In this document: piece by piece, positions 6,740-51,434 of the stretch
Position numbering within the stretch: the first letter of the stretch is position 1
How the letters are laid out: each line of letters opens with the position of its first letter
Assembly (NCBI GenBank): GCA_965246985.1
Contig: OZ251998.1
Location: forward strand, 6,505,657-6,569,656
Direction: 5' to 3'
DNA length: 64,000 nucleotides
Source: Candidatus Poribacteria bacterium
GTDB taxonomy: Bacteria; Poribacteria; WGA-4E; WGA-3G
Notes under the pieces: generated by a model
Seen by the model: only the letters and a program-made list of their open reading frames with translations
Told to the model about the DNA's origin: nothing
Database searches by the model: none
Made by a program: the position numbers and the translations under genes

Positions 6740-6860
6740 CGCTTAAGAAGGGATGAAATTTGCCCTTCTTCCTATTTCCCTACGCTGGCATGACCCAGAT
6801 CAGGTTCAATGGGTGTTTTCTCAGCTCTTAAGCAGATAAGAGCACCCCATGATGTTGTTC
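6740..6860 (-). promoter_or_regulatory. TPP (thi-box) riboswitch controlling the thiXY-thiOS-thiG operon
   Basis: The minus strand reads ...GGGGUGCU-[P3 hairpin gcucuua/uaagagc]-CUGAGA-aaACACCC-auuGAACCUGAUCUGGGUCAUGCCAGCGUAGGGAA.... This carries all the conserved thi-box blocks. It sits 60-170 nt upstream of the first transporter gene, followed by an expression-platform hairpin (gaagaaggg...cccttcttaa). Confidence 0.8.
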
Positions 6861-24249: not shown

Positions 24250-25492
24250 AAGGGGAAGGATGGCGGTATGTGTTATCAGAATCACAGAAAGCGCGGTGGG
24301 TGACATCCATGCAGCACGTATTGCCGGGTAAACACCAAAAATGACCCCCATGAAAATAGAAAAGATGACAGATATAACCTATACTCCGCACTTCTAATTT
24401 CGGATTTTTGGTATTTATTTTTTAAACCCACGTGGTTCCAACGTTCAACAAGCAATTTCAGGTGAATCAGAGAAGATATACGTGCGAAATGAAATCTTAT
24501 TTACCATCTCTAAATTTTATTATACTGTTTGGATCCTTTCGTGACGTGGGTTTGTCTAAAAATACCAAAATGTGTCAAAACAAGTGCGGAGTGTAGGATA
24601 TAAGTATCCACTGCACGGATAATACCACAGGTCACTCCTCCACAATCGGAACAATACGAACTGCGATGCGTGCCATGCCGTGGGCGAAGAGCCAGCCCCC
24701 GGCAATACCGAGTCTGTGTCTTTTGCGGAGTACCTCCTTGGCAGAGTTAATGACAGTATAGACATCTGTGCCTTTTTGAAAAAAGACGATGAGTCTTTCA
24801 ACATAACGTTCTGAAGATATACGCTGTTGACGTGTTGTCAATGGAACAAAAATGATGTCATCCATTGACATGCCACGGCTGAGGCTTTCGCCTCTGGGCA
24901 CCATGATACCAACCACGCGGCACCTAACCCACCTTCTGCGCCTGAGGCGGATTTTCACCTCTTGTCCAAGTGGCGGAGTATTTCTGAATAACTCTGTAGC
25001 GGCGTTGACACTAAGGACACAAACCTGCTTTGCGTTGTCAACATCGTCTTCAGAAAGGAATCGCCCGTGTTGCACTTCCCATCCCATAATGTGGGCGTAG
25101 TCTGCTGTCACACCTTCAATAGTCGAACGTATTTGGACACCTTGGTTAGATGTAACCCATCTCGGATACTTTCGATTTTGTGGCAAGACATAGAGCACAT
25201 CGGGGCATTCTGCTTCAATGGCACGTGCATCAGCGAGAGAGTATCGCTCGGTTGTCCGCTTCTTCGGCTTTCCCCGTGGATACGTATAAGGGCGGACCCA
25301 GAATCGCACGTGGTTGGGGCCGCCAAGTTTTTCAATGTCGTCGGCTATAATTTTTTGGGTGCCGTCGCCAATGGCCATCATGCAGAGAACACTCGCGACC
25401 CCAATAAGGATACCGAGGATGGATAATCCAGAGCGGAGTCGGTTTTGCTGAAGGTGCGCAATGCCAGAGGTTATCGCATCATAGCACTTCAT
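24250..25492 (-). pseudogene. FtsX/MacB-type ABC permease, cassette copy 1, disrupted by an in-frame deletion and a MITE insertion
   Basis: The N-terminal 255 aa are nearly identical to the intact paralog at 36660-37922. Then an in-frame 258-bp deletion joins …RKRHR to LGIAGGW…. The extreme C-terminus (…GVIFGVYPAIRAAWMSP) lies at about 24290-24350, separated from the body by a 230-bp MITE. Confidence 0.65.
24372..24602. mobile_element. MITE with about 60-bp terminal inverted repeats inserted in permease copy 1
   Basis: Left end is atataacctatactccgcacttctaatttcggatttttggtatttattttttaaacccacgtggt. Right end in reverse complement is atatcctacactccgcacttgttttgacacattttggtatttttagacaaacccacgtcac. 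The interior is AT-rich and non-coding. Confidence 0.6.
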
Positions 25493-27551: not shown

Positions 27552-27832
27552 AAAAATAGACCTCTAAGGATTGTGTGCACAGTAGGGTTGTAATTTGGGT
27601 TGTCTGAAACGTGCAGCACACATCGTAGTTTGCTCACACATTGTAGTTTGCTCACACATTTCAGACAATCCAGACATAAACATTTTGTGTTTAAAACAGT
27701 ATGATAACCTCTGATGAACCAAATGTTTCTACATTTCATCTAGGTTATTTGGTGCACTATCGGTTGTGACAATTGCCTTGACTATCAGCACCGTCACAAG
27801 TTACTGAACCATCGGGTACATTATTATTACAA

Positions 27833-28136
27833 TAGACATTATAATGGTTTAATTGTGTGTTTGTTCATCCATTTTTTTGGTAAAATCGCGGAGACCTACT
27901 CCTAAACGACAACCGTTAGGAGACCTCTCTTTGATAAAGGTTCTACGCGTCGCGCGAACTTTTAGTTTCCGCGGTATACGCCACAAACTAAAAGTTTGTG
28001 CTACAAGGTACGTCTTTGATAGACGAGAGACGAGAAACCTTTAGGGCGGACGAGAAGTCTCAACTGAACTGACGTTTATACCGATACCCCTAAAAGTTAA
28101 TTTACACAACATGTTCTTAAATCGTTATAACGTCTA
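27833..28136. mobile_element. MITE (family with TAGACATTATAA terminal inverted repeats) flanked by two degraded copies of the Cys-rich gene
   Basis: Ends are tagacattataatggtttaattgtgt… and …gttcttaaatcgttataacgtcta. The about-45-bp ends match the 35228-35419 element and the interior differs. One side (27752-27829, minus strand) reads …YCNNNVPDGSVTCDGADSQGNCHNR*, a Cys-rich tail fused directly to the 5' leader. The other side abuts the stop codon of copy B. Confidence 0.5.
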
Positions 28137-28529
28137 ATATGTATCACCTTTCTCATGACAAGGATTTTCAGTTCCTGTACCACAGCTGCTATCACTACAA
28201 CCACTGCCACAGCTATATGAGCCAGTCGAATTGTTACAGTTAGAATCTGCGACACAATCACAAGACGCGTCTGTTTGATCATCATTGTCTAAGCAGCTGC
28301 AACTATAAAAGTTAGATACTTGATCGGTGCTGCCACAACAGCCGCCTGTAGTTGCAGCGACTAAAGTTGCATCGCCGCCACCACAGCATCCTTTCGCTGC
28401 TTCAGACTCTGAGGTGTCCCAACTGCCTGTCAGGAAGAAAATACAACTACCAATTAAATCATACCAGCGGATGTTGTTTTTGTCAATTTTTTTAAGAGAA
28501 ATTAAAGTGTTTTCTTCGGAAACTTTACA
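28134..28529 (-). pseudogene. Cys/Gly-rich small secreted protein, cassette copy 1, lacking a start codon and part of the signal sequence
   Basis: Frame open from an upstream TGA: …KKIDKNNIRWYDLIGSCIFFLTGSWDTSESEAAKGCCGGGDATLVAATTGGCCGSTDQVSNFYSCSCLDNDDQTDASCDCVADSNCNNSTGSYSCGSGCSDSSCGTGTENPCHEKGDTY*. It has no in-frame ATG/GTG/TTG. Compare the intact paralogs at 34769-35227 and 40133-40621. Confidence 0.5.
28458..28486 (-). promoter_or_regulatory. near-consensus sigma-70-type promoter (TTGACA-17-TATGAT)
   Basis: The minus strand reads TTGACAaaaacaacatccgctggTATGAT. It lies within a block that recurs at 36240-36305. Confidence 0.4.
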
Positions 28530-28658
28530 TCATTGAGGCGCAAGGAGCCGGGAGAGCAAGTTTGGTGTAAGGGTTGGGTGACCCAACCCCTACGAGATCA
28601 GAAACTTCATCAAATCGCGCCTAAAAGAAGTAGGTATGGCGCAAAGAACGTAAGTCCG

Positions 28659-29003
28659 CTAATCCACTAAAGAGATAACCCCTTTCTTGCGTTGGAGTAC
28701 GGCATCGTAGAACCGCATCGTGCCAACGCAGTCTTGGATACTTGATACCGGTTCCCGGTTCTCACGAATGGCGTTAACAAACTCGGTGAGACTGATGCCG
28801 TCGCCGGTCAGTTCGCCGTTGCGTTCATCAGAGAAATTAGAGGTAAAGGTATTACCAGATTCGGTGAAATGCTGAGCACCCCACAACCCATCTAAAACAA
28901 TGTATTCGTGTTGTCCAGTAATTTCGATGTAATCGTAGTTACGCCGCCACAACCGTTGGCTGCTGAGTTGCCTGCTGTAATGCCAAGCAATGTTAGCCCC
29001 CAT
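28659..29003 (-). pseudogene. ectopic duplicated 3' fragment of the Gfo/Idh/MocA oxidoreductase gene (43256-43560)
   Basis: The 114-aa ORF is nearly identical to the last roughly 100 aa of the 43256-44203 protein (…SQRLWQRNYDYIEITGQHEYIVLDGLWGAQHFTESGNTF…LQRKKGVISL). The downstream hairpin gtaagggttgggtgacccaacccctac is copied too (28567-28595 vs 43222-43250). A solo IS630-like end (cttcatcaaatcgcgcc, 28602-28618) abuts it. Confidence 0.7.
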
Positions 29004-29872
29004 GCCAGCTTTCGTGCATAGCGGCGTAAGTGTTCTACGTAGGTCAGTAGCAGATATCTTATGCCACGCAATATAAGGACCATCAACGGTGGAAAAAGCA
29101 TAATCGCAGCAAGATGTGTATTAGAGCTGTATCCGCTTCGGTAGGCGGGGCTTATGAAATAGAGCCAGGGAACAAACATAAGCGTCCAGAGAACATACTC
29201 TATGAGACGATTTTCTGTGTCTGTGGTGCAAAACTTCCAAAGTTCTAAGGCAATTATAATGATGAGGAAGAAACCAAACCCTTCCCAACTCATTCCGCCA
29301 AGGAAAACAGTGGCACCGCAGAGCGCGGTTGTTATCCATCTCCGCCATCCCAGCTCCATACGCTCTTTCCAAAGGTAACTTATCACCGCAAGAATACCGA
29401 ACATCCAGCACCACGCGTCTCTGTCGCCGAAACCAACGGAACTACGCTCAATACTCCCCGGTAAAGTCGCAAGGAGTAGGATAATAGTAGCAGTGAAGTA
29501 GAATCCAAAGACACGGGCAAGAAATAGACAAAGCACACCGAGCCCGACAATGAAACAGATAGTAGGAAGATAAATTTGAATATGGTACAGTGTCAGTTCT
29601 GGAAAGATCCACCCGATGGACTTATGGATATAAGCAATACCATAAGCATAGAGATACAAACGTTGTCCATTTTCTCTACCTTCCGGCAACCAACGGCGCA
29701 TATCGCGTGCTGGAAGAACATTTTGCTCAGCGATCTCTTGTGCTTGTAGGGCGTAGAGATAGGCATCATTAGACGTAAACTGATTGTCAGGTAATCTTCC
29801 GACATCTTGAACGCGGATCCAGCAGGCAAGCAGCAGAATCGCACAGAGAAGAATTTTTTGATAGAACTTCAT
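29004..29872 (-). pseudogene. GT-C-fold membrane glycosyltransferase-like protein (ArnT/PMT/STT3-like), 3'-truncated by the inserted fragment
   Basis: N-terminal TM helix, then …TSNDAYLYALQ… (DxD-like) and many TM helices. The ORF-track ORF (28892-29872) reads out of frame into the duplicated oxidoreductase fragment, so the C-terminal half of the gene is missing. Confidence 0.4.
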
Positions 29873-29878
29873 AGTGTA

Positions 29879-31239
29879 TTACAAACGGAAGGCATATTGC
29901 CAACCGAGGGTGAGACTCCATACGTTTTTGAGTTGTGTCCCTGTAAGATTCTGATAAATAGGCAGAGTGAACTCAACTGCAATCCGCTGTCCTGCCAACG
30001 ATTTTCCTGCTGGCACCATCAGGTTGCTTGAAATAGCAACGTCAAGCCGAGTGCCGCCACGAAAATCAGGTCGATGGCTCGGACTCATGTTTGTATTTAA
30101 ATCGGGATGGCTACCGGTAATATGTCCACTGTGCGAAAATAGAAACCGTCCGCCGAGACTGAGCCAATCGCTGAGCTTTCGCGCGCCCCATGCAGTAGCG
30201 TTGACAGAATTCCCGTGTTGGTATTCACCGCTATTAGTATGCAGAGGAAACGTTCCGCGTAATTGACTACCATAAGACCAATTCCCGTAATACCCGAAAA
30301 GCGTTATGCCTGATCGTCCTTCAACGGAACCACTCCCAAGTTGCATCGGATAGGGTAAGATGTTTCCATCCAGCCCAGTCTGTTCAATAGAACCCGTCGG
30401 CAATGACATACCGATGTTTCCAATGAAATTGAGGTGGTCTGTTTTCCACAATGTGAGTAGAGACTCTAATTTGACATCGCCAAGTCCTGAACTTGTCATT
30501 TCGTGCGTGCCCACGGGATGCGCGTGATGACCTGTTGCGTGGTCGTGTGAACCTTCCATCTCCATGTAGCGTTGCTGATAGTTTCCTTGTTTTCGTCCAA
30601 GCATATGGGGATCCAGTTGATCAATGAAAGGCTATCAATCCCAGTCCATATCTGCTTTCAAGAGGGGTTAAAAGGTCTCAAATCACAACACCCTACCTTT
30701 GAAACCCTTATCATAACTGGGCATCAACTTTTTCAAGGCCTCTTTGGTGCCGGAAAAGCGATAAAAATCGTGGTTTTGGTTTCCTTTTTCTCTCAAAGGT
30801 GTGTAGAAGTTGTTTGCCACCTTTTGAGGTGTTGTTTTCTCAATGTGTGTGTAGGTTTGTGCGTGATTAGAGCAAGTATGGTTTCCTACACTTATTGGAC
30901 AAAAACAAGGTAGTTTGCCATTACCATGAGCGTGATTTTGTCGTGTGGTGCGAACATAACCCCGAAACTATGCATTTTCATGTCCATCTGTGTCGGCACC
31001 GTCATAAAATCTTTTAGCACGTCAGCAGTCTCAAGAGCTGTAGTGCCGGATTGTAGTCCCCGCATATCCATTGCCATGAATCTGTAGGATAGCATCCATT
31101 CGCGAGTTTTATGTGCATGTTCACCCATGACACCGATAGGCGCGTGACTATCGGGACGCGAACTTGGGGAATCTGCATAAGCAGCGTTGAGAGTCAGTAA
31201 AAGTAGCAAAACAGTTAAAACATTTATGTGTGATTTCAA
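29879..31239 (-). pseudogene. outer-membrane beta-barrel protein, split into two ORFs by about 290 bp of unreadable sequence
   Basis: The N-terminal piece (30892-31239) has a signal peptide plus …HAPIGVMGEHAHKTREWMLSYRFMAMDM…. The C-terminal piece (29879-30604) has alternating amphipathic beta-strands ending …WQYAFRL, an aromatic-x-aromatic C-terminus. The 30605-30891 gap has no continuous frame. Confidence 0.45.
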
Positions 31240-31302
31240 TCACTTCTCCTTATGAATGGTTATCGGTTATGAGAAAAAATGCTTCACCGATAACTATTTG
31301 TG

Positions 31303-32570
31303 TTATGTATCCGTTCGGAGGGCATCGATAGGGGCCATCTGCGATGCTCGGATAGCAGGATAGACACCAAAAATGATACCCATGAAGATTGAAAAGAGGA
31401 CAGAAATCACCATCCATCGCACAGACAGCACCACCGGCCACACCTCTACAATGGGTAGGATACGGACAGCAACGCGTGCCATACCGTGGGCGAAGAGCCA
31501 GCCACCAGCGATACCGAGCAGTGAACCACAAAAACAGAGGCTCATAGATTCGGTTAGAATTGATAGAAGATATCGATGCATCTTGCGCCGACGGCTTTTC
31601 GCAAACCGATCTCGCGCGTCTTCTCACCGACGGAGACAAGGCAGATATTCATAATCCCGATGCCACTGACAAGCAACGAGAAACCCGCAATGCCACCCAA
31701 GGCAATCTTTATCATTTTTTCAATGCGTTCAAGTTGTTTGACAGTTCGTTTGGGAATCCAATCATATACAAAGTTATCGGTACCCCGGTGTCTTTTACTA
31801 ATCACCTTCCGGGCGGATTTTACCACATCGGAAGCGTCTACGTCTTTTTGAAAAAAGATAATAAGCCTTTCAACATAGCGGATGCCCGTAATACGTTGTT
31901 GATACGTTGTTATCGGAACGCATATCATATCATCTAAACTCCCCCAGGTAATACTGAGGTTCCTCCCTTTCGGTGCCATGGTACCGACAACGCGCATCCG
32001 AACGGGTGTTTGCCGCCAATGATTCCGAAGTTTTATCTCTTGACCGATGGGGGAGACATTTCCGAACAACTCTTCAACTACGTTTGCACCCAAGACGCAG
32101 ACCTGTGTGGCGTTGTCTATATCGTTCTCGGAGAGAAATCTACCCGCTTGCAACTCGTACCGCAAGAGTTCGGCATAGTCTGCTGTTACGCCTTCCAGAT
32201 CAGCACCTCTGAATTGCCCGCCCAGGGGGCTGGTGACAAATGTATTATTTCTCCGATTCCGAGGTAGGACCCCTGTGACCTCCGGGCATTCTGCCTCAAT
32301 CGCAGGAGCGTCCTCCAAAGTATATCGCTCCGTTGTTGGATATCGTCGGCCGCGTCTCCAGCCAGATGTGTGTGTCCAGAATTGGATTTGATTTGCCCCC
32401 CCGATTTTTTCGATGTCATCGGCGATGATCTGTTTCGCGCCATCCCCGATGGCCATCATACAAAGGACACTTGCAATGCCAATGAAGATGCCGAGGATGG
32501 ATAATCCGGCACGGCTTTTATTTTCTTGGATATGCTTGATACCTGCAGCAATTGCCTCATGGAATTTCAT
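31303..32570 (-). pseudogene. FtsX/MacB-type ABC permease, cassette copy 3, split by a 1-nt deletion (frameshift)
   Basis: ORFs 31554-32570 and 31303-31581 overlap by 28 nt in different frames. Alignment to copy 2 shows caatttttgacagaatctat in copy 2 against caattctaaccgaatctat here, one base shorter. Confidence 0.65.
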
Positions 32571-32595
32571 GCGGCTCCACCCAATCTATGTTGGA

Positions 32596-34590
32596 TTAAG
32601 AACCCATCACGGATTTCAGGTCCCAGAGGAGGATGGTGCTGTCAAAACTCCCACTCGCTAAGAGGGTGCCGTCGGGTGAAAACGCGAGATCTTGGACATC
32701 GGTCGGGTGTCCCCAGAAGGTGGCGATGTTTTCGCCGGTGGCAACTTCCCACAAGCGAATAGGCACCTTTTCTGTTTCCACGGCCCTATTCCACCACGCG
32801 CCAGAAGCAAGATATTGCCCACAAGGTGAAAACGCCAAGGCACGCGGATTTCCATTGGTAGGTGCATGAGGAAGAGTCAAAAGAGTTCGACAATTATTGA
32901 CATCCCACAATCGGATTTCCGTTGCCATGCCACAAGCGATCTTATGACCGCAAGGTGAAAACGCGACAGTATAGACACGGTTGACACGGAACTCCGGATT
33001 TTCTTTCCCCGTATCGATGTCCCATAGATTTGCCATCGTGCCAGAAGAACTCGGAACACTTACAAGGTGTTTACCGTCGTGGCTGAATATAAGGCGGCTG
33101 ATACGATTATGATCATCATCCCAATTCCCTTCTAAGGGGAGAGTGTGTGTGAGCACACAGCGCACGTCACCACTTCTCATATCCCATACATACAGATGCC
33201 CTTTGCTATCCCCGCACGCGATGAGATGTCGTAGCGGGGCGTGTGCTGCGGCAGTCACCACTGCCTCTGGGTCGGGAAGTGTAAATGTCATAGGTGTCGT
33301 GTTTTCGTCGGCTTCCCCTATTTTAACGGTTATTTTAACAGTATTTTCATCATACGCAAATGCTGTCGAGTGAATTTTCTCTGAAGTGGACACAGAAACG
33401 GCTCGTGGGTCACCGGATATTTTGAAAAAAGTGGGCGGTTGCATGGGGTTGGCAATATCCCATAATAGCGTGCTTCCATACCTTACAAACCCGGCTGCCA
33501 CCTTTTTGCCATCTTGTGAGAACGCTACGGAATTCGGAAAACCGACATGTAAATGCGGCACCTTGCGGGGTTTGGTATCCCCGGGTGACCAGACTGCCCA
33601 TTCCTTTCCCCCAGCAACGACAAAATGCGAACTGCTTGAAAAAAGTGCTTTATCAATCTCCCATTCCTTTTCAACGTACGTGTAGCGTTTTTCATGACGT
33701 TCCACGTCCCACACGACGACAGTGTTTCTTTCCAGAGCATTTTCCAGAGTCTGAAGAACGCCTTCCTGTGAATAGCAGACGCTCATGCGAGAGGTGCCAT
33801 CATAGTTCTGATATACTCGCTGCTGTTCCCAAGTATTCACATTCCATACGTGCACTGTGCCTTTATCGCTGCCGATGGCCAGAGTTTGTCCACAAGGTGA
33901 AAAGCAGAGGCTGCGCACAAAGCTCGGTTGTTCGGTAAGACAGGCGATGCGCTCACCGGTTACGACATCCCACACCAAAACAACATCGGGGCCATCCGTT
34001 GTCCCGGCGGGAGCCGTACACGCCAGCAGGCGACTGTCTGGCGAAAAAGCAACGGGTCGAGGGAGGGAGGGGTAAGAACTGCGTGTTTCTCTTTGGGGGT
34101 CATGGAACGTAGCCAGCGGTGTGCCGGTTCTGGGGTCCCAGGTGTAGACAATCTCACAACGGCTACCTGTTGCGGCCAGGTGCTGGTTATCAGGTGAAAA
34201 GGCAAGAGACTTAATTGCAGTCGTCCTAGGGACTGGCTTTTTTAACCCTGGCCGCACAATTTTTGTAATGCAGGTGCTCCGCTGGATATCCCACACTTTG
34301 ATAACACCATCCCAGTTGCCGGTCGCAGCCAATCGCCCATCAAGAGAAATAGTAATGGCACCCAGCATTCCTCGTTCTGTTTCCCATAGAGCAACAGGTT
34401 GCATTGTCGCGAGTTCATACCACCAGAGCCCAATTTTGGTTGCGGCTGCGAGGTATGCTCCATCCGGCGATACTGCCATCGCCATCACAGTTCCACGCCC
34501 GAACCGAGAAATCGCACCATCCGGTAAAGCCCAGCTCATTGGATGACCTTTATCAGCGACAATGGGCGTGGACCCTGTTTTTTCTGACAT
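32596..34590 (-). CDS. cytoplasmic WD40 beta-propeller protein, cassette copy 2 (664 aa)
   Basis: AGGAGG sits 8 nt upstream of the ATG. N-terminal W-x-LPDGA-x-SRFGRG module, WD repeats, and a C-terminal …ASGSFDSTILLWDLKSVMGS. Confidence 0.8.
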   Translation of the reverse strand: MSEKTGSTPIVADKGHPMSWALPDGAISRFGRGTVMAMAVSPDGAYLAAATKIGLWWYELATMQPVALWETERGMLGAITISLDGRLAATGNWDGVIKVWDIQRSTCITKIVRPGLKKPVPRTTAIKSLAFSPDNQHLAATGSRCEIVYTWDPRTGTPLATFHDPQRETRSSYPSLPRPVAFSPDSRLLACTAPAGTTDGPDVVLVWDVVTGERIACLTEQPSFVRSLCFSPCGQTLAIGSDKGTVHVWNVNTWEQQRVYQNYDGTSRMSVCYSQEGVLQTLENALERNTVVVWDVERHEKRYTYVEKEWEIDKALFSSSSHFVVAGGKEWAVWSPGDTKPRKVPHLHVGFPNSVAFSQDGKKVAAGFVRYGSTLLWDIANPMQPPTFFKISGDPRAVSVSTSEKIHSTAFAYDENTVKITVKIGEADENTTPMTFTLPDPEAVVTAAAHAPLRHLIACGDSKGHLYVWDMRSGDVRCVLTHTLPLEGNWDDDHNRISRLIFSHDGKHLVSVPSSSGTMANLWDIDTGKENPEFRVNRVYTVAFSPCGHKIACGMATEIRLWDVNNCRTLLTLPHAPTNGNPRALAFSPCGQYLASGAWWNRAVETEKVPIRLWEVATGENIATFWGHPTDVQDLAFSPDGTLLASGSFDSTILLWDLKSVMGS

Positions 34591-34768
34591 TTCTTATGTT
34601 CCTCCTAAAAACTATCCGTTCTAATACCATTAGGGTTTCCCGCTACGTTCTGAATCCTAAAATGGTGTATATCATCACGTAGCCGAAAACCCTCATATTT
34701 TAGTATGACCTACGACAGACATGCACATCTGCAAGGGAGAATGAGGCTCCGGAGATCCATGCTGTTTT

Positions 34769-35227
34769 TCAGCAGTTCGAAGTACAAACGCTGCTGCTGG
34801 TATCATTTGGACACCGTTCCCCATCACATTCACACTCATTTTTGCTAGGAGAACAACTACTCCCCCCACAAACAGTATTCTCAGCACCTGAGCACGTGCC
34901 ATTATCACAGCTGGAACCACAAGATGTCCCAGCCTCAGAGAGACAAGTACATGCACTGTTGCTGCTTGAGGGGATAACTTTACCTTCGCCGCCGCAGCAT
35001 CCACCGGTGACTTCGGCATCCATTGGGATGTCACTGCCGAAATCCCCGCCGTTGTTCGCTGCAAAGGAAGTCAATGCTGCCCCGCCACCACCACAGCATC
35101 CTTTCGCTTCTTCAGCCTCTGAGGCATCCCAACTGCCTGTCAGCAAGAAAATACAGCCACCTACAAACAGCAAGGTGATCATTAAGTTACCGATAGTGTT
35201 CCGGTGGGTTTTCAACATTTTACTCAT
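34769..35227 (-). CDS. small Cys/Gly-rich secreted or membrane-anchored protein, cassette copy 2
   Basis: MSKMLKTHRNTIGNLMITLLFVGGCIFLLTGSWDAS is a signal/anchor segment. It is followed by the conserved GCCGGGGA…TGGCCGG motif pair and then a tail with about 20 Cys that differs from its paralogs. Confidence 0.6.
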   Translation of the reverse strand: MSKMLKTHRNTIGNLMITLLFVGGCIFLLTGSWDASEAEEAKGCCGGGGAALTSFAANNGGDFGSDIPMDAEVTGGCCGGEGKVIPSSSNSACTCLSEAGTSCGSSCDNGTCSGAENTVCGGSSCSPSKNECECDGERCPNDTSSSVCTSNC

Positions 35228-35419
35228 TAGACATTATAATGGTTTAATTGTGTACTTTTGTTCATCTATTTTTTCGCTATCCTACAAACACATTTTTCCT
35301 TAAAATGGCAAAAATGTGGGCAAACTCGTAAACGGCAATCGTTAAAAGACGACAACGTGAAATATACATCTACTAAAAGTTAATTTGATCAACAAGTTCT
35401 TAAATCGTTATAATGTCTA
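35228..35419. mobile_element. MITE (TAGACATTATAA inverted-repeat family) inserted between the RBS and ATG of the copy-2 Cys-rich gene
   Basis: Ends are tagacattataatggtttaattgtgtacttttgttcatc… and …caacaagttcttaaatcgttataatgtcta. The copy-3 paralog has GGGAAAGGAAAGaaaaATG contiguous. Here 192 bp separate GGGAAAGGAAAG from the ATG. Confidence 0.55.
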
Positions 35420-35479
35420 TTATTCTTTCCTTTCCCATATAGGGGTTGTAAAATACAAAAAGTTATACAAAGTTTTAAC

Positions 35480-36216: not shown

Positions 36217-36245
36217 TTTTCACTCAATTATACACGCGGAGCCAA
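36217..36245 (-). promoter_or_regulatory. second consensus sigma-70-type promoter (TTGACA-17-TATAAT), 82 nt upstream of the first
   Basis: The minus strand reads TTGACAaaaattggctccgcgtgTATAAT. It sits in the block that is repeated at 28466-28525. Confidence 0.45.
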
Positions 36246-36529
36246 TTTTTGTCAATTTTTTTAAGAAAAATCAAAAAATTGTTTTCTTCGGAAACTTTAC
36301 ATCATTTCTAATATCATCTATCATCGGTTTATCATCGGTTTCGCCGAGGTACGGGAGTTGGGTGAACAATGTTTGGTGTAGGGGTCGGGGCCCCCCAACC
36401 CCATAGGTGTAAATTTAAGAAAAAAGTTATGCGCTAAGGCCCTCCGGACCGGTAGGTGCGGTTTTGCGGCGTACCATAGGTGTAAATTTAAGGGAAAGTC
36501 TGTGTATTTTTAGTGATTAAAAAAGTGTT

Positions 36530-49481: not shown

Positions 49482-51434
49482 ATGCTAAGACGCTTTTCAA
49501 GAATACTACATCTCCAAATAGGGATTACCGAAAAAAAACGAGAGTTCATGATGAAAAAAACGTTATTTTCCAACTTTTTGACGCTCCTTATTGTTTTTTC
49601 AATGCTCCACCTACTGCCCAACACCTTCGCCCAAGACAACACACAGTGGGGGGTACCTGAGGGGGCAAGAGCCCGACTCGGTAGAGGCGGAACAGGTGAG
49701 ATGCGGTATTCTCCCGACGGGACGCTCCTCGCGGTGTCAAGCGGCATCGGTATTTGGCTCTACGATACCGCAACCTATCAAGAAATTAGCCTGCTCACCG
49801 GGCAAAGCGAAGAAATCTTCAGCATCGCGTTTAGTCCTGACGGAAAAACAATTGCGAGTGGGTGTTATGATGGGACTATCCGTTTATGGGATCTCGGCAC
49901 AGGTACGCACAAGACAAGGCTCACAACGTATAAGGTTAGTGTCAATAGCGTGGCATTCAGCCCAGATGGGCGCACACTTGTGTGTGGAAGTGACGATGGC
50001 ACTGTCCACCTCTGGGATGCACACACCGGCGAACATCAGAAAACACTCACGGGACATACGGATAATGTCTACAGCGTGGCATTCAGCCCGGATGGACAGA
50101 CACTCGCCAGTGGGAGCGACGACACCGACACCATTCGCCTCTGGGATGCACACACCGGCGAACACAAGAAAACGCTCACAGGACATGCCGATGGGATTAT
50201 AAGTTTATCGTTCACGCCAAATGGGCGCACCCTTGCCAGTGGGAGCTACGATAGGACTATCCGCCTCTGGAATGTACATACCGGCGAACATCAGAAAACA
50301 CTCACGGGACATACGGATAATGTCTACAGCGTGGCATTCAGCCCGGATGGACGCACACTTGCCAGTGGAAGCGAAGACGGCACTGGCCGCCTCTGGGAAG
50401 CACACACCGGCGAACACAAGAAAACGCTCACAGGACATATAGGAGCGGTCTATAACGTAGCATTCAGTCCCGATGGACAGACACTCGCCAGTGGGGGTGG
50501 GAGAGAAGTCCGCCTCTGGAATGCCCACACCGCAGAACATCAAAAAACGCTCACGGGATATACCGAACAAGTCTCAAGTGTAGCGTTCAGCCCAGATGGA
50601 CAGATACTCGCAAGCGGAAGTGATCCTGGCGAGACCGTTGACTTCTGGGATGGAGACACGGGTGCTCACAAAAAAACGCTCACTGGAGATATAGGACGAG
50701 TTTTCAGTATAGCGTTCAGCCCCGATGGAAAAACGCTCGCCAGTGGGACTCTTAAAAATCCGCCCCACTTGTGGGACGTGCATACTGGCACGCACAAGCA
50801 GGCATTCAAAGGACCGGCCCCGGTCTATTGCGTAGCGTTCAGCCCCGATGGAAAAACACTTGCCAGTGGGGGTTGGGAGGATATCCACCTCTGGGATGCA
50901 CACACCGGTGAGCGCAAGAGAATACTTGAAGGACATACGTTGTGGGTGAGAAGCGTGGCATTCAGCCCAGATGGACAGACACTCGCAAGCGGAAGCGGCG
51001 ACGATACCATCCGCCTCTGGGAGGTGCACACTGGCAAGCTCACGAACATACTCATAGGACATGCAGACGGTGTCATAAGTGTGACGTTCAGCCCCGATGG
51101 AAAAACACTCGCCAGTGGGGGTGGGGACGGGACCCTCCGCCTCTGGAATGCACACACCGGCACATCCAAAATAACCCCCACCGGACATACAGATTGGGTT
51201 AATAGCGTGGCGTTCAGTCCCGATGGGAAAATACTCGCTAGCGGAAGCAGAGACGGCAATATCCACCTCTGGGATGCGGATACTGGTGAACACAAGAAAA
51301 CGCTCACAGGGCATACATTCTGGGTGGAAAGTCTCGCCTTCAGTCCCGATGGAAAAACACTCGCCAGTGGGAGTTTGGACAGCACAGTACTATTGTGGGA
51401 ACTATTCGAGACACCGCCACCAACGCCACGATGA
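49482..51434 (+). CDS. secreted WD40-repeat protein (about 14 repeats) without a dockerin
   Basis: Signal peptide (probable start MMKKTLFSN at about 49548). Repeats are nearly identical at the nucleotide level, for example LWDAHTGEHKKTLTGH four times. Ends …LWELFETPPPTPR. Confidence 0.8.
   Translation: MLRRFSRILHLQIGITEKKREFMMKKTLFSNFLTLLIVFSMLHLLPNTFAQDNTQWGVPEGARARLGRGGTGEMRYSPDGTLLAVSSGIGIWLYDTATYQEISLLTGQSEEIFSIAFSPDGKTIASGCYDGTIRLWDLGTGTHKTRLTTYKVSVNSVAFSPDGRTLVCGSDDGTVHLWDAHTGEHQKTLTGHTDNVYSVAFSPDGQTLASGSDDTDTIRLWDAHTGEHKKTLTGHADGIISLSFTPNGRTLASGSYDRTIRLWNVHTGEHQKTLTGHTDNVYSVAFSPDGRTLASGSEDGTGRLWEAHTGEHKKTLTGHIGAVYNVAFSPDGQTLASGGGREVRLWNAHTAEHQKTLTGYTEQVSSVAFSPDGQILASGSDPGETVDFWDGDTGAHKKTLTGDIGRVFSIAFSPDGKTLASGTLKNPPHLWDVHTGTHKQAFKGPAPVYCVAFSPDGKTLASGGWEDIHLWDAHTGERKRILEGHTLWVRSVAFSPDGQTLASGSGDDTIRLWEVHTGKLTNILIGHADGVISVTFSPDGKTLASGGGDGTLRLWNAHTGTSKITPTGHTDWVNSVAFSPDGKILASGSRDGNIHLWDADTGEHKKTLTGHTFWVESLAFSPDGKTLASGSLDSTVLLWELFETPPPTPR

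Follow-up and report, generated by a model that had tools for sequence, protein, structure and literature searches.

Two short elements in the 64,000-nt stretch of Candidatus Poribacteria DNA analyzed here (the window), both examined within positions 27833-35419, are very probably miniature inverted-repeat transposable elements (MITEs), that is, non-autonomous deletion or mosaic derivatives of an insertion sequence (IS) lineage that is widespread in Candidatus Poribacteria. One of them interrupts the coding region of a gene for a small Cys-rich protein in the first of three paralogous gene cassettes, the other sits at the start codon of the corresponding gene in cassette 2, and the equivalent site in cassette 3 is empty. 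The terminal repeats, the 3-bp duplications of the target, the exact empty sites in two other assemblies, and the repeats held in common with a transposase-bearing element were observed directly. An earlier interpretation made from the letters of this stretch (the sequence-only reading) had proposed a MITE family, and this core proposal was upheld by the empty paralogous and orthologous sites, the inverted repeats and duplications, the lack of coding capacity, and the existence of an IS with the same repeats.

MITE copy 1 (27834-28135; 302 bp; G+C content, 40%) lies toward the 3' end of the coding sequence of the cassette-1 Cys-rich gene, and MITE copy 2 (35229-35418; 190 bp; G+C content, 30%) represents the canonical form of its subfamily. 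A 19-nt terminal inverted repeat, AGACATTATAAYGRTTTAA, bounds both copies; its two arms are complementary at 16 of 19 positions in copy 1 (27834-27852 and 28117-28135) and at 17 of 19 in copy 2 (35229-35247 and 35400-35418). The elements read AGACA...TGTCT from end to end, and the T and A just outside these ends are part of a target-site duplication of 3 bp. This duplication is AAT to the left (27831-27833) and right (28136-28138) of copy 1 and ATT (AAT on the gene strand) on the gene side (35226-35228) and the leader side (35419-35421) of copy 2, without a mismatch in either pair. The sequence-only reading had thus located the elements correctly, and their similar ends, their different interiors, and the TTATAA(T) in both ends were all found as described, but the exact ends it gave were wrong, as the true ends lie one base further inside. 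The two copies are alike over ∼47 to 52 bp on the left and ∼47 bp on the right (89 to 91% identity). When one mismatch was allowed, the 12-mer TAGACATTATAA had four matches in the window, compared to 0.22 expected by chance, and these were the four element termini. No further copy or solo end of this pair was found elsewhere in the window.

No transposase was detected in the window (tblastn with the parent transposase; best E = 5.8), and both copies are without coding capacity. Small size, absence of a transposase, terminal inverted repeats, target duplications, empty sites, and repeats in common with an autonomous element were all found, and these features of both copies agree with the usual definition of a MITE (PMC3184786). 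Copy 2 aligned over its full length with sequences from other Poribacteria (L108:4777-4964 and L063:400-592; L numbers denote retrieved DNA stretches, and P numbers denote homologous proteins) at ∼73 to 74% identity, and copy 1 retains the ends and part of the core of the same subfamily. Much of the difference between the two interiors is explained by a 77-bp palindromic module in copy 1 (27937-28013), which is flanked by 8-bp direct repeats, CTTTGATA, at 27929-27936 and 28014-28021. The module occurs in 15 of the 115 retrieved loci, in some of them within MITEs of other subfamilies that have these terminal repeats, and is related to the hairpin repeat GTAGCGCAAACTGTTAGTTTGCG...GCACAAACTAACAGTTTGTGCTAC (15 of 115 loci). 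It is probably a nested small repeat and may be of a third type. There was no Rfam match at the gathering score within 27833-35419; the sole Rfam match in the window was a TPP riboswitch (RF00059) at 6760-6859 on the minus strand (67.7 bits).

The terminal repeat is not peculiar to this stretch. In a scan of 596 Gb of sequence, with one genome per species and a 20-nt end pattern (17 specified bases), at least 107 stretches with the repeat, among the 115 matches listed, came from Candidatus Poribacteria and represented 35 assemblies. Matches outside the Poribacteria were few and were near chance expectation or came from bins of the same sponge metagenomes. Paired ends enclosed elements of 190 to 415 bp, which fall into several subfamilies with unrelated interiors, as well as elements of 1,041 to 1,045 bp. 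One of the longer elements (L009:1919-2959) and at least 11 others of ∼1,041 bp, bounded by the same repeat, provide the candidate parent IS, which encodes a single 315-amino-acid transposase with HTH_Tnp_4 and DDE_Tnp_4 domains. The transposase matched PF13359 (DDE_Tnp_4) with an E value of 9e-25 (87.5 bits; cutoff, 24.8), PF13613 (HTH_Tnp_4) with an E value of 2e-9 (37.1 bits; cutoff, 27), and PF01609 (DDE_Tnp_1) at 31.6 bits (cutoff, 23). Its only NCBIfam match, NF033581 (transpos_IS5_4), scored 53.9 bits, below the cutoff of 140. By its domains the parent IS is placed in the IS5/PIF-Harbinger superfamily; judged from these profile scores, it is a distant relative of the IS5 family that falls short of the curated model's cutoff. 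More than 4,600 homologues of the transposase were present in public data, typically on contigs of ∼1 kb. The link between MITE and IS is closest at the right repeat of copy 2, which was identical at 19 of 19 positions to the IS repeats in L083, L094, L112, and L061. Two copies of the subfamily were found in the 64 kb of the window, and the terminal-repeat family as a whole was abundant in related genomes.

Within the IS copies, the transposase gene was in a single frame at a poly-T run of seven in L009, and at the same run it was split into two overlapping frames in L064 (T8), L091 (T9), and L112 (T7). Split frames were seen in several lineages, including at least six copies in OZ250160.1 that had identical matches to the L009 transposase. 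This pattern suggests programmed +1 frameshifting, transcriptional slippage, or homopolymer assembly errors. A full-length IS copy was also found on a 123-kb contig binned as Nitrosopumilus (L092; CBDCWS010000001.1), and an element end was found on a contig binned as Gammaproteobacteria (L098; VXYV01000061.1) from the same sponge sample as a Poribacteria bin. These placements reflect either binning error or transfer between coresident symbionts. No paper that connects Poribacteria to MITEs, or in which the terminal-repeat sequence appears in a relevant context, was found in the literature, and this IS/MITE superfamily of sponge-symbiont Poribacteria appears to be undescribed.

Analysis of paired elements in the Poribacteria loci indicated how the family selects its targets. 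The 3-bp flanks were identical in 29 of 38 pairs, compared to a rate of 0.36 expected from flank frequencies (binomial P = 4e-7). Most of the matching flanks were AAT or ATT, and two pairs were AAA/AAA; the overall tally of duplications was 53 ATT and 47 AAT, with a few AAA or ACT. A sequence logo was derived from 118 unique ends, in which the first base of the duplication is uninformative because the retrieval pattern had fixed it as A. Reading outward, the second and third bases of the duplication were W (95%) and T (90%), and the adjoining flank was R (84%) followed by W (88%). The preferred target is thus an AT-rich WY-AWT-RW site with a 3-bp duplication. The sequence-only reading had proposed such an alignment of insertion sites, which yielded this target and the AWT duplication; it had also suspected that the conserved element end, TTATAATGTCTA, was itself the recognized target and recurred at the native gene start, and neither suggestion was supported, as TTATAATGTCTA was seen at no native gene start. 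The logo gave WY-AWT-RW instead, and with up to two mismatches the only matches to TTATAATGTCTA in the window other than the termini were at 50060 and 50315. With three mismatches, the total number of matches in the window was not above chance. The resemblance noted at the gene start is simply its AT-rich context, ...GAATAATGAGTA.

Several observations weigh against a derivation of the two elements from this IS lineage or limit what can be made of it. Nine of the 38 pairs did not have matching duplications, and some of these were nested or mispaired. The similarity between MITE and IS is confined to ∼19 to 25 terminal bases, so the parentage is argued from the repeats and the duplication alone. 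Only two copies of this subfamily are present in the window, its relatives elsewhere are ∼73% identical, and its specific right end had 0 matches when JGI metagenomes were scanned; recent activity is therefore unproven. Autonomous copies were seen in related Poribacteria, and an intact IS in the source genome is presumed.

If the two elements are MITEs of this lineage, then a transposase produced from a full-length IS copy elsewhere in the genome would bind the MITE repeats, excise the element, and insert it at a short AT-rich WY-AWT-RW target. A 3-nt staggered cut at the target, once repaired, would leave the 3-bp AAT or ATT duplication. Mobilization in trans, like the intact IS in the same genome on which it would depend, is assumed in this scheme. 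The mechanism is that of a standard non-autonomous DDE transposon, and no new mechanism is invoked.

The Cys-rich gene of cassette 2 (34769-35227, minus strand; 152 amino acids in the open reading frame [ORF] listing) has a start codon that abuts copy 2, and a purine-rich, Shine-Dalgarno-like tract, GGGAAAGGAAAG, lies beyond the other end of the element (35425-35436, minus strand). In cassette 3 the paralogous site is empty and reads GGGAAAGGAAAGAAAAATG (40619-40637, minus strand), with an intact AAT target at 40620-40622. The orthologues in L122 and L116 read GGGAAAGGAAAGAATAATG(A/C)GTAAAATG, which is the sequence predicted for cassette 2 before insertion, with the element and one AAT removed. 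The sequence-only reading had therefore been right to place the cassette-2 insertion between the ATG (35225-35227) and its ribosome-binding site, which are contiguous in cassette 3. The duplicated AAT overlaps the A and AT of ...GAATAATG, i.e., the base before the start codon and the first two bases of that codon, and the gene-side copy of the duplication rebuilds the ATG (35225-35227, minus strand). The distance from the end of AAGGA to the ATG is 7 nt in the empty orthologue; in the window the insertion has added 193 nt to it. The 20 nt that now precede the cassette-2 ATG (...AAACCAUUAUAAUGUCUAAUG) contain no purine-rich tract. Translation from this start would probably be strongly reduced, if judged by the displaced tract. 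The homologous protein P0037 is identical to the cassette-2 protein from residue 4 onward, and the gene caller had taken the second ATG as its start.

A second start-codon insertion with a rebuilt ATG was observed in L077, where a 382-bp MITE of a sister subfamily (L077:1251-1632; duplication, AAT) interrupts, at AAT|G, the start codon of a gene for a 240-amino-acid HAD-type hydrolase, 9 nt downstream of the stop codon of the preceding gene. General targeting of start codons was considered and rejected: an ATG followed 18 of the 118 unique ends, and this ATG opened a long ORF in only 2 of them (152 and 240 codons), which is only suggestive. At one further ATG-followed end, the ORF was cut by the end of the locus.

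In cassette 1, copy 1 interrupts the coding region itself. The body of the Cys-rich gene (28139-28451, minus strand) has no start codon, as its 5' end has been replaced by another repeat family (D19, D20). The premature stop TAG at 28134-28136 (minus strand) consists of the last T of the duplication and the AG of copy 1, and the insertion detaches the last 24 codons of the gene. The detached tail, CNNNVPDGSVTCDGADSQGNCHNR, remains intact at 27757-27830 (minus strand), with the original stop TAG at 27757-27759, and it is in frame and collinear with the orthologues P0023 and P0020 and, after excision of the element, with L121 (ENA ERZ21830300). Removal of the element together with one copy of the duplication gives the empty site of L121, which is cassette 1 minus 305 bp and aligned without a gap (127 of 140 identities) across ...GATACATATTGTAATAATAATG.... 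P0023 and P0020 read GDTYCNNNVP through the insertion junction. The start-less gene with a stop abutting the element was as the sequence-only reading had described it, since the ORF listing has none in this frame and the TAG is at 28134-28136. The leader-to-tail fusion proposed on the other side of the element was not, because the sequence there (27757-27830) is the 3' tail of the same gene and matches an intact orthologue collinearly, and the flanks that were attributed to MITE-associated deletion or recombination rejoin ungapped on L121, as after a plain insertion. At L121:6120-6150, a deletion of ∼62 bp has removed the Shine-Dalgarno tract and the start codon (...TATAACTTT|CGGAACACC...). 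L121 thus lacks the MITE and yet has lost its start, and therefore the cassette-1 paralogue lineage decayed independently of the MITE.

These empty sites leave virtually no chance that the shared ends are an ancestral leader common to all of the paralogues, so that a duplicated leader would have been mistaken for a mobile element. Both copies do adjoin paralogous Cys-rich genes in the same relative orientation, as an inherited leader would. However, the segment is precisely absent from cassette 3, L116, and L122, where the site has just one AAT. Copy 1 interrupts a coding sequence that runs on without a break in L121, P0023, and P0020, and over 100 elements with these termini were found in unrelated surroundings across 35 assemblies. 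The mobile-element reading thus survives the possibility that the sequence-only reading had itself named as fatal. Rearrangement rather than insertion at cassette 1, in which a deletion or recombination brought about by the element would have joined unrelated remnants of genes, is very unlikely. It would be in keeping with a gene that has no start, with the degenerate state of the whole cassette, and with the replacement of the gene's 5' end by another repeat family. The rejoining of the flanks into a single frame, ungapped against the orthologue over the 140 nt compared, and the two perfect copies of the duplication argue against it, and the 5' damage is tied to a different repeat 300 bp away. 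It is extremely improbable that the elements are instead Stowaway-, Correia-, or IS630/Tc1-mariner-type MITEs with termini of TAGACA.../GACA..., inserted at TA and flanked by a TA duplication. As first read, every copy is flanked by TA...TA, and excision that keeps one TA leaves the cassette-1 frame open. The base beyond the TA, however, was complementary at both ends in 29 of the 38 pairs, as expected for a 3-bp AWT duplication, and the AAA/AAA pairs violate the TA rule. Furthermore, insertion at TA predicts an extra Tyr codon (GDTYYC) where the orthologues read GDTYC, and it leaves a 3-nt gap in the alignment with cassette 3 that is absent under the 3-bp model. The transposase belongs to DDE_Tnp_4, and there was no mariner or IS630 family among its matches.

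Co-option of copy 2 for expression of the cassette-2 gene is unlikely. In one version, the outward-facing TATAAT, 5 nt from the rebuilt ATG, would drive a leaderless or near-leaderless mRNA. In the other, a hairpin of the terminal repeats in a read-through RNA would restore the Shine-Dalgarno tract to the vicinity of the AUG, as a split ribosome-binding site, or would act as a processing site. As ATTATAAT is a palindrome, each end has a TATAAT that points outward, and a promoter-like hexamer pair was called in each element, TGAACA-18-TATAAT on the left in copy 1 and TTGATC-18-TATAAT on the right in copy 2. Functional promoters have been reported in Correia MITEs (PMC3184786), and the insertion in L077 places a second member of the family at AAT|G of a start codon. 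The terminal repeats paired in both the minimum-energy and the centroid folds of the predicted RNA; the stem then has the Shine-Dalgarno tract 6 nt away on its 5' side and the AUG 1 nt away on its 3' side. The predicted fold was not more stable than those of shuffled sequences, however (z = -1.0). In the direction of the cassette-2 gene the only -35-like hexamer was TGAACA, at 20 nt from TATAAT, and no sigma-70-like promoter was called. For sigma-54, the cassette-2 leader gave no promoter match, and the single candidate is upstream of cassette 3. The TTATAAT end, which the sequence-only reading had considered as a promoter for the downstream gene, is part of the repeat held in common with the parent IS. 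An outward promoter as a conserved trait of the family was rejected, given the weak -35 signal across 88 distinct ends: a match to at least 4 of the 6 consensus positions at a spacing of 16 to 18 nt was found in 18 of the 88, compared to 8 of 88 at control spacing. The scarcity of long ORFs among the 18 ATG-followed ends and the apparent frameshift in the cassette-2 permease gene also argue against co-option. Perfect consensus sigma-70 promoter-like sites lie ∼0.9 to 1.0 kb further upstream on the strand of the cassette-2 gene, which weakens the case for a promoter in the element and makes a read-through transcript plausible.

A broader form of this idea is quite unlikely. The WY-AWT-RW target fits ...AATAATG starts, and the AGACATTATAA family could for this reason land repeatedly on start codons and rebuild the ATG, as in cassette 2 and L077, with its hairpin or TATAAT serving as a reversible switch that tunes the Cys-rich/WD40/MacB-like cassettes. 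If so, the switch, translational or transcriptional, could work through a split ribosome-binding site, a site of RNA processing, or leaderless transcription.

Each Cys-rich gene is followed by a gene for a WD40 beta-propeller protein and a gene for a MacB/FtsX-type permease. The permease ORF is intact in cassette 3 (420 amino acids) and is truncated or apparently frameshifted in cassettes 1 and 2. In cassette 2 the apparent frameshift (31554-31581) yields ORFs of 338 and 92 amino acids; the cassette-1 permease gene is internally deleted and truncated (24632-25492), with 286 amino acids compared to 420 in cassette 3. As the permeases are damaged in both of the cassettes that were hit and intact in cassette 3, the insertions are best read as neutral or inactivating events in what appear, from comparison of the genes, to be redundant, decaying paralogues.

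The small Cys-rich proteins themselves (34769-35227, 40136-40621, and 27757-28451, all on the minus strand) belong to no Pfam family; in their sequences a hydrophobic segment at the N terminus precedes GCCGGG motifs. The family has 45 homologues (P0001 to P0045), and at least nine paralogues were found on one 171-kb contig. A different repeat family, with the GC-rich palindrome TTGGGTGACCCAACCCC, is present at 28457-28600, 36226-36410, and ∼43110-43250, and it is presumably the first MITE family of the earlier interpretation. It is this repeat that replaces the 5' end of the cassette-1 gene. On the minus strand the repeat has a promoter-like site of sigma-70 consensus type that is directed toward the Cys-rich genes: TTGACA-17-TATAAT at 36255-36227 (12 of 12 positions) and TTGACA-17-TATGAT with an upstream TG at 28486-28458 (11 of 12). 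A second perfect promoter-like site is located at 36173-36145.

Directly upstream of cassette 3 is a gene for a 440-amino-acid sigma-54-dependent activator (41502-42824, minus strand), and a -24/-12-like motif, TGGCATGATATTTGCT, lies after this gene and upstream of the cassette (41386-41401, minus strand). The same type of activator adjoins the orthologous cassettes in L116 and L122, and cassettes 1 and 2 are without this upstream part. Upstream of cassette 1 there is a 114-amino-acid remnant of the 3' end of a gene for a GFO_IDH_MocA-type oxidoreductase (28659-29003, minus strand). It is 85% identical to the full gene at 43256-44203 (minus strand), upstream of the cassette-3 activator. The remnant thus matches a neighbor of cassette 3, and cassette 1 is therefore a segmental duplication minus the activator and leader.

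The elements described here define an IS/MITE superfamily of uncultivated Poribacteria, which is characterized by its terminal repeats, a preferred target, a 3-bp duplication of the AWT type, and the transposase of the parent IS. Such a description is of use in annotation because short-read assemblies break at the elements and start codons are miscalled on account of them, as in P0037 with its second ATG. Pseudogenized paralogues can be recognized by these elements, and the presence or absence of copies can provide markers for strain-level population studies. Cassette 2 shows cleanly, in a natural setting, how an insertion into a start codon can restore the ATG and uncouple it from its ribosome-binding site.

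The closest known counterparts are IS5-derived MITEs, such as BrickBuilt, MITE293, and MITE700 of Porphyromonas gingivalis (PMC4596501) and MITEAba12 of Acinetobacter (PMC6382973). Like these, the elements in the window are short and AT-rich, have target duplications and no transposase, and carry repeats identical or nearly so to those of a full-length IS in the same clade with no other sequence in common; copies can likewise disrupt or adjoin genes. They differ from the Porphyromonas and Acinetobacter elements in their host phylum, in an unrelated repeat, in the 3-bp AWT duplication, and in a parent transposase that scores below the NCBIfam IS5 cutoff (53.9 versus 140 bits). Correia elements (CREE/NEMIS) of Neisseria are MITEs of 100 to 160 bp that occupy AT-rich sites near gene starts, are cotranscribed, form hairpins, and in some cases provide outward promoters (PMC3184786). 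The Poribacteria elements resemble them as bacterial MITEs with terminal inverted repeats and an AT-rich insertion site near a gene start. Correia elements are flanked by TA, whereas a TA duplication was rejected here, and outward promoters were not conserved.

Among eukaryotic elements, the Tourist MITEs of the PIF/Harbinger group are similar in having a DDE_Tnp_4 parent, a 3-bp duplication composed only of A and T, and many interiors combined with one repeat. The PIF/Harbinger duplication is TWA (TAA or TTA), whereas the one found here is AWT and does not conform to TWA. Furthermore, Harbinger elements are several kilobases long, and the parent here is a bacterial IS of ∼1 kb with a single gene and no Myb-like second protein. 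The IS5 subgroups IS1031, ISL2, and IS427 (ISfinder) comprise elements of ∼0.85 to 1.1 kb with short repeats, a 2- to 4-bp duplication, and an AT-containing target, and some members of IS5 subgroups make their transposase from two frames by a shift that is classically -1. Many of the IS copies described here are likewise split, at the poly-T run; unlike the classical -1 shift, this split requires a +1 shift or slippage at T8 to T9.

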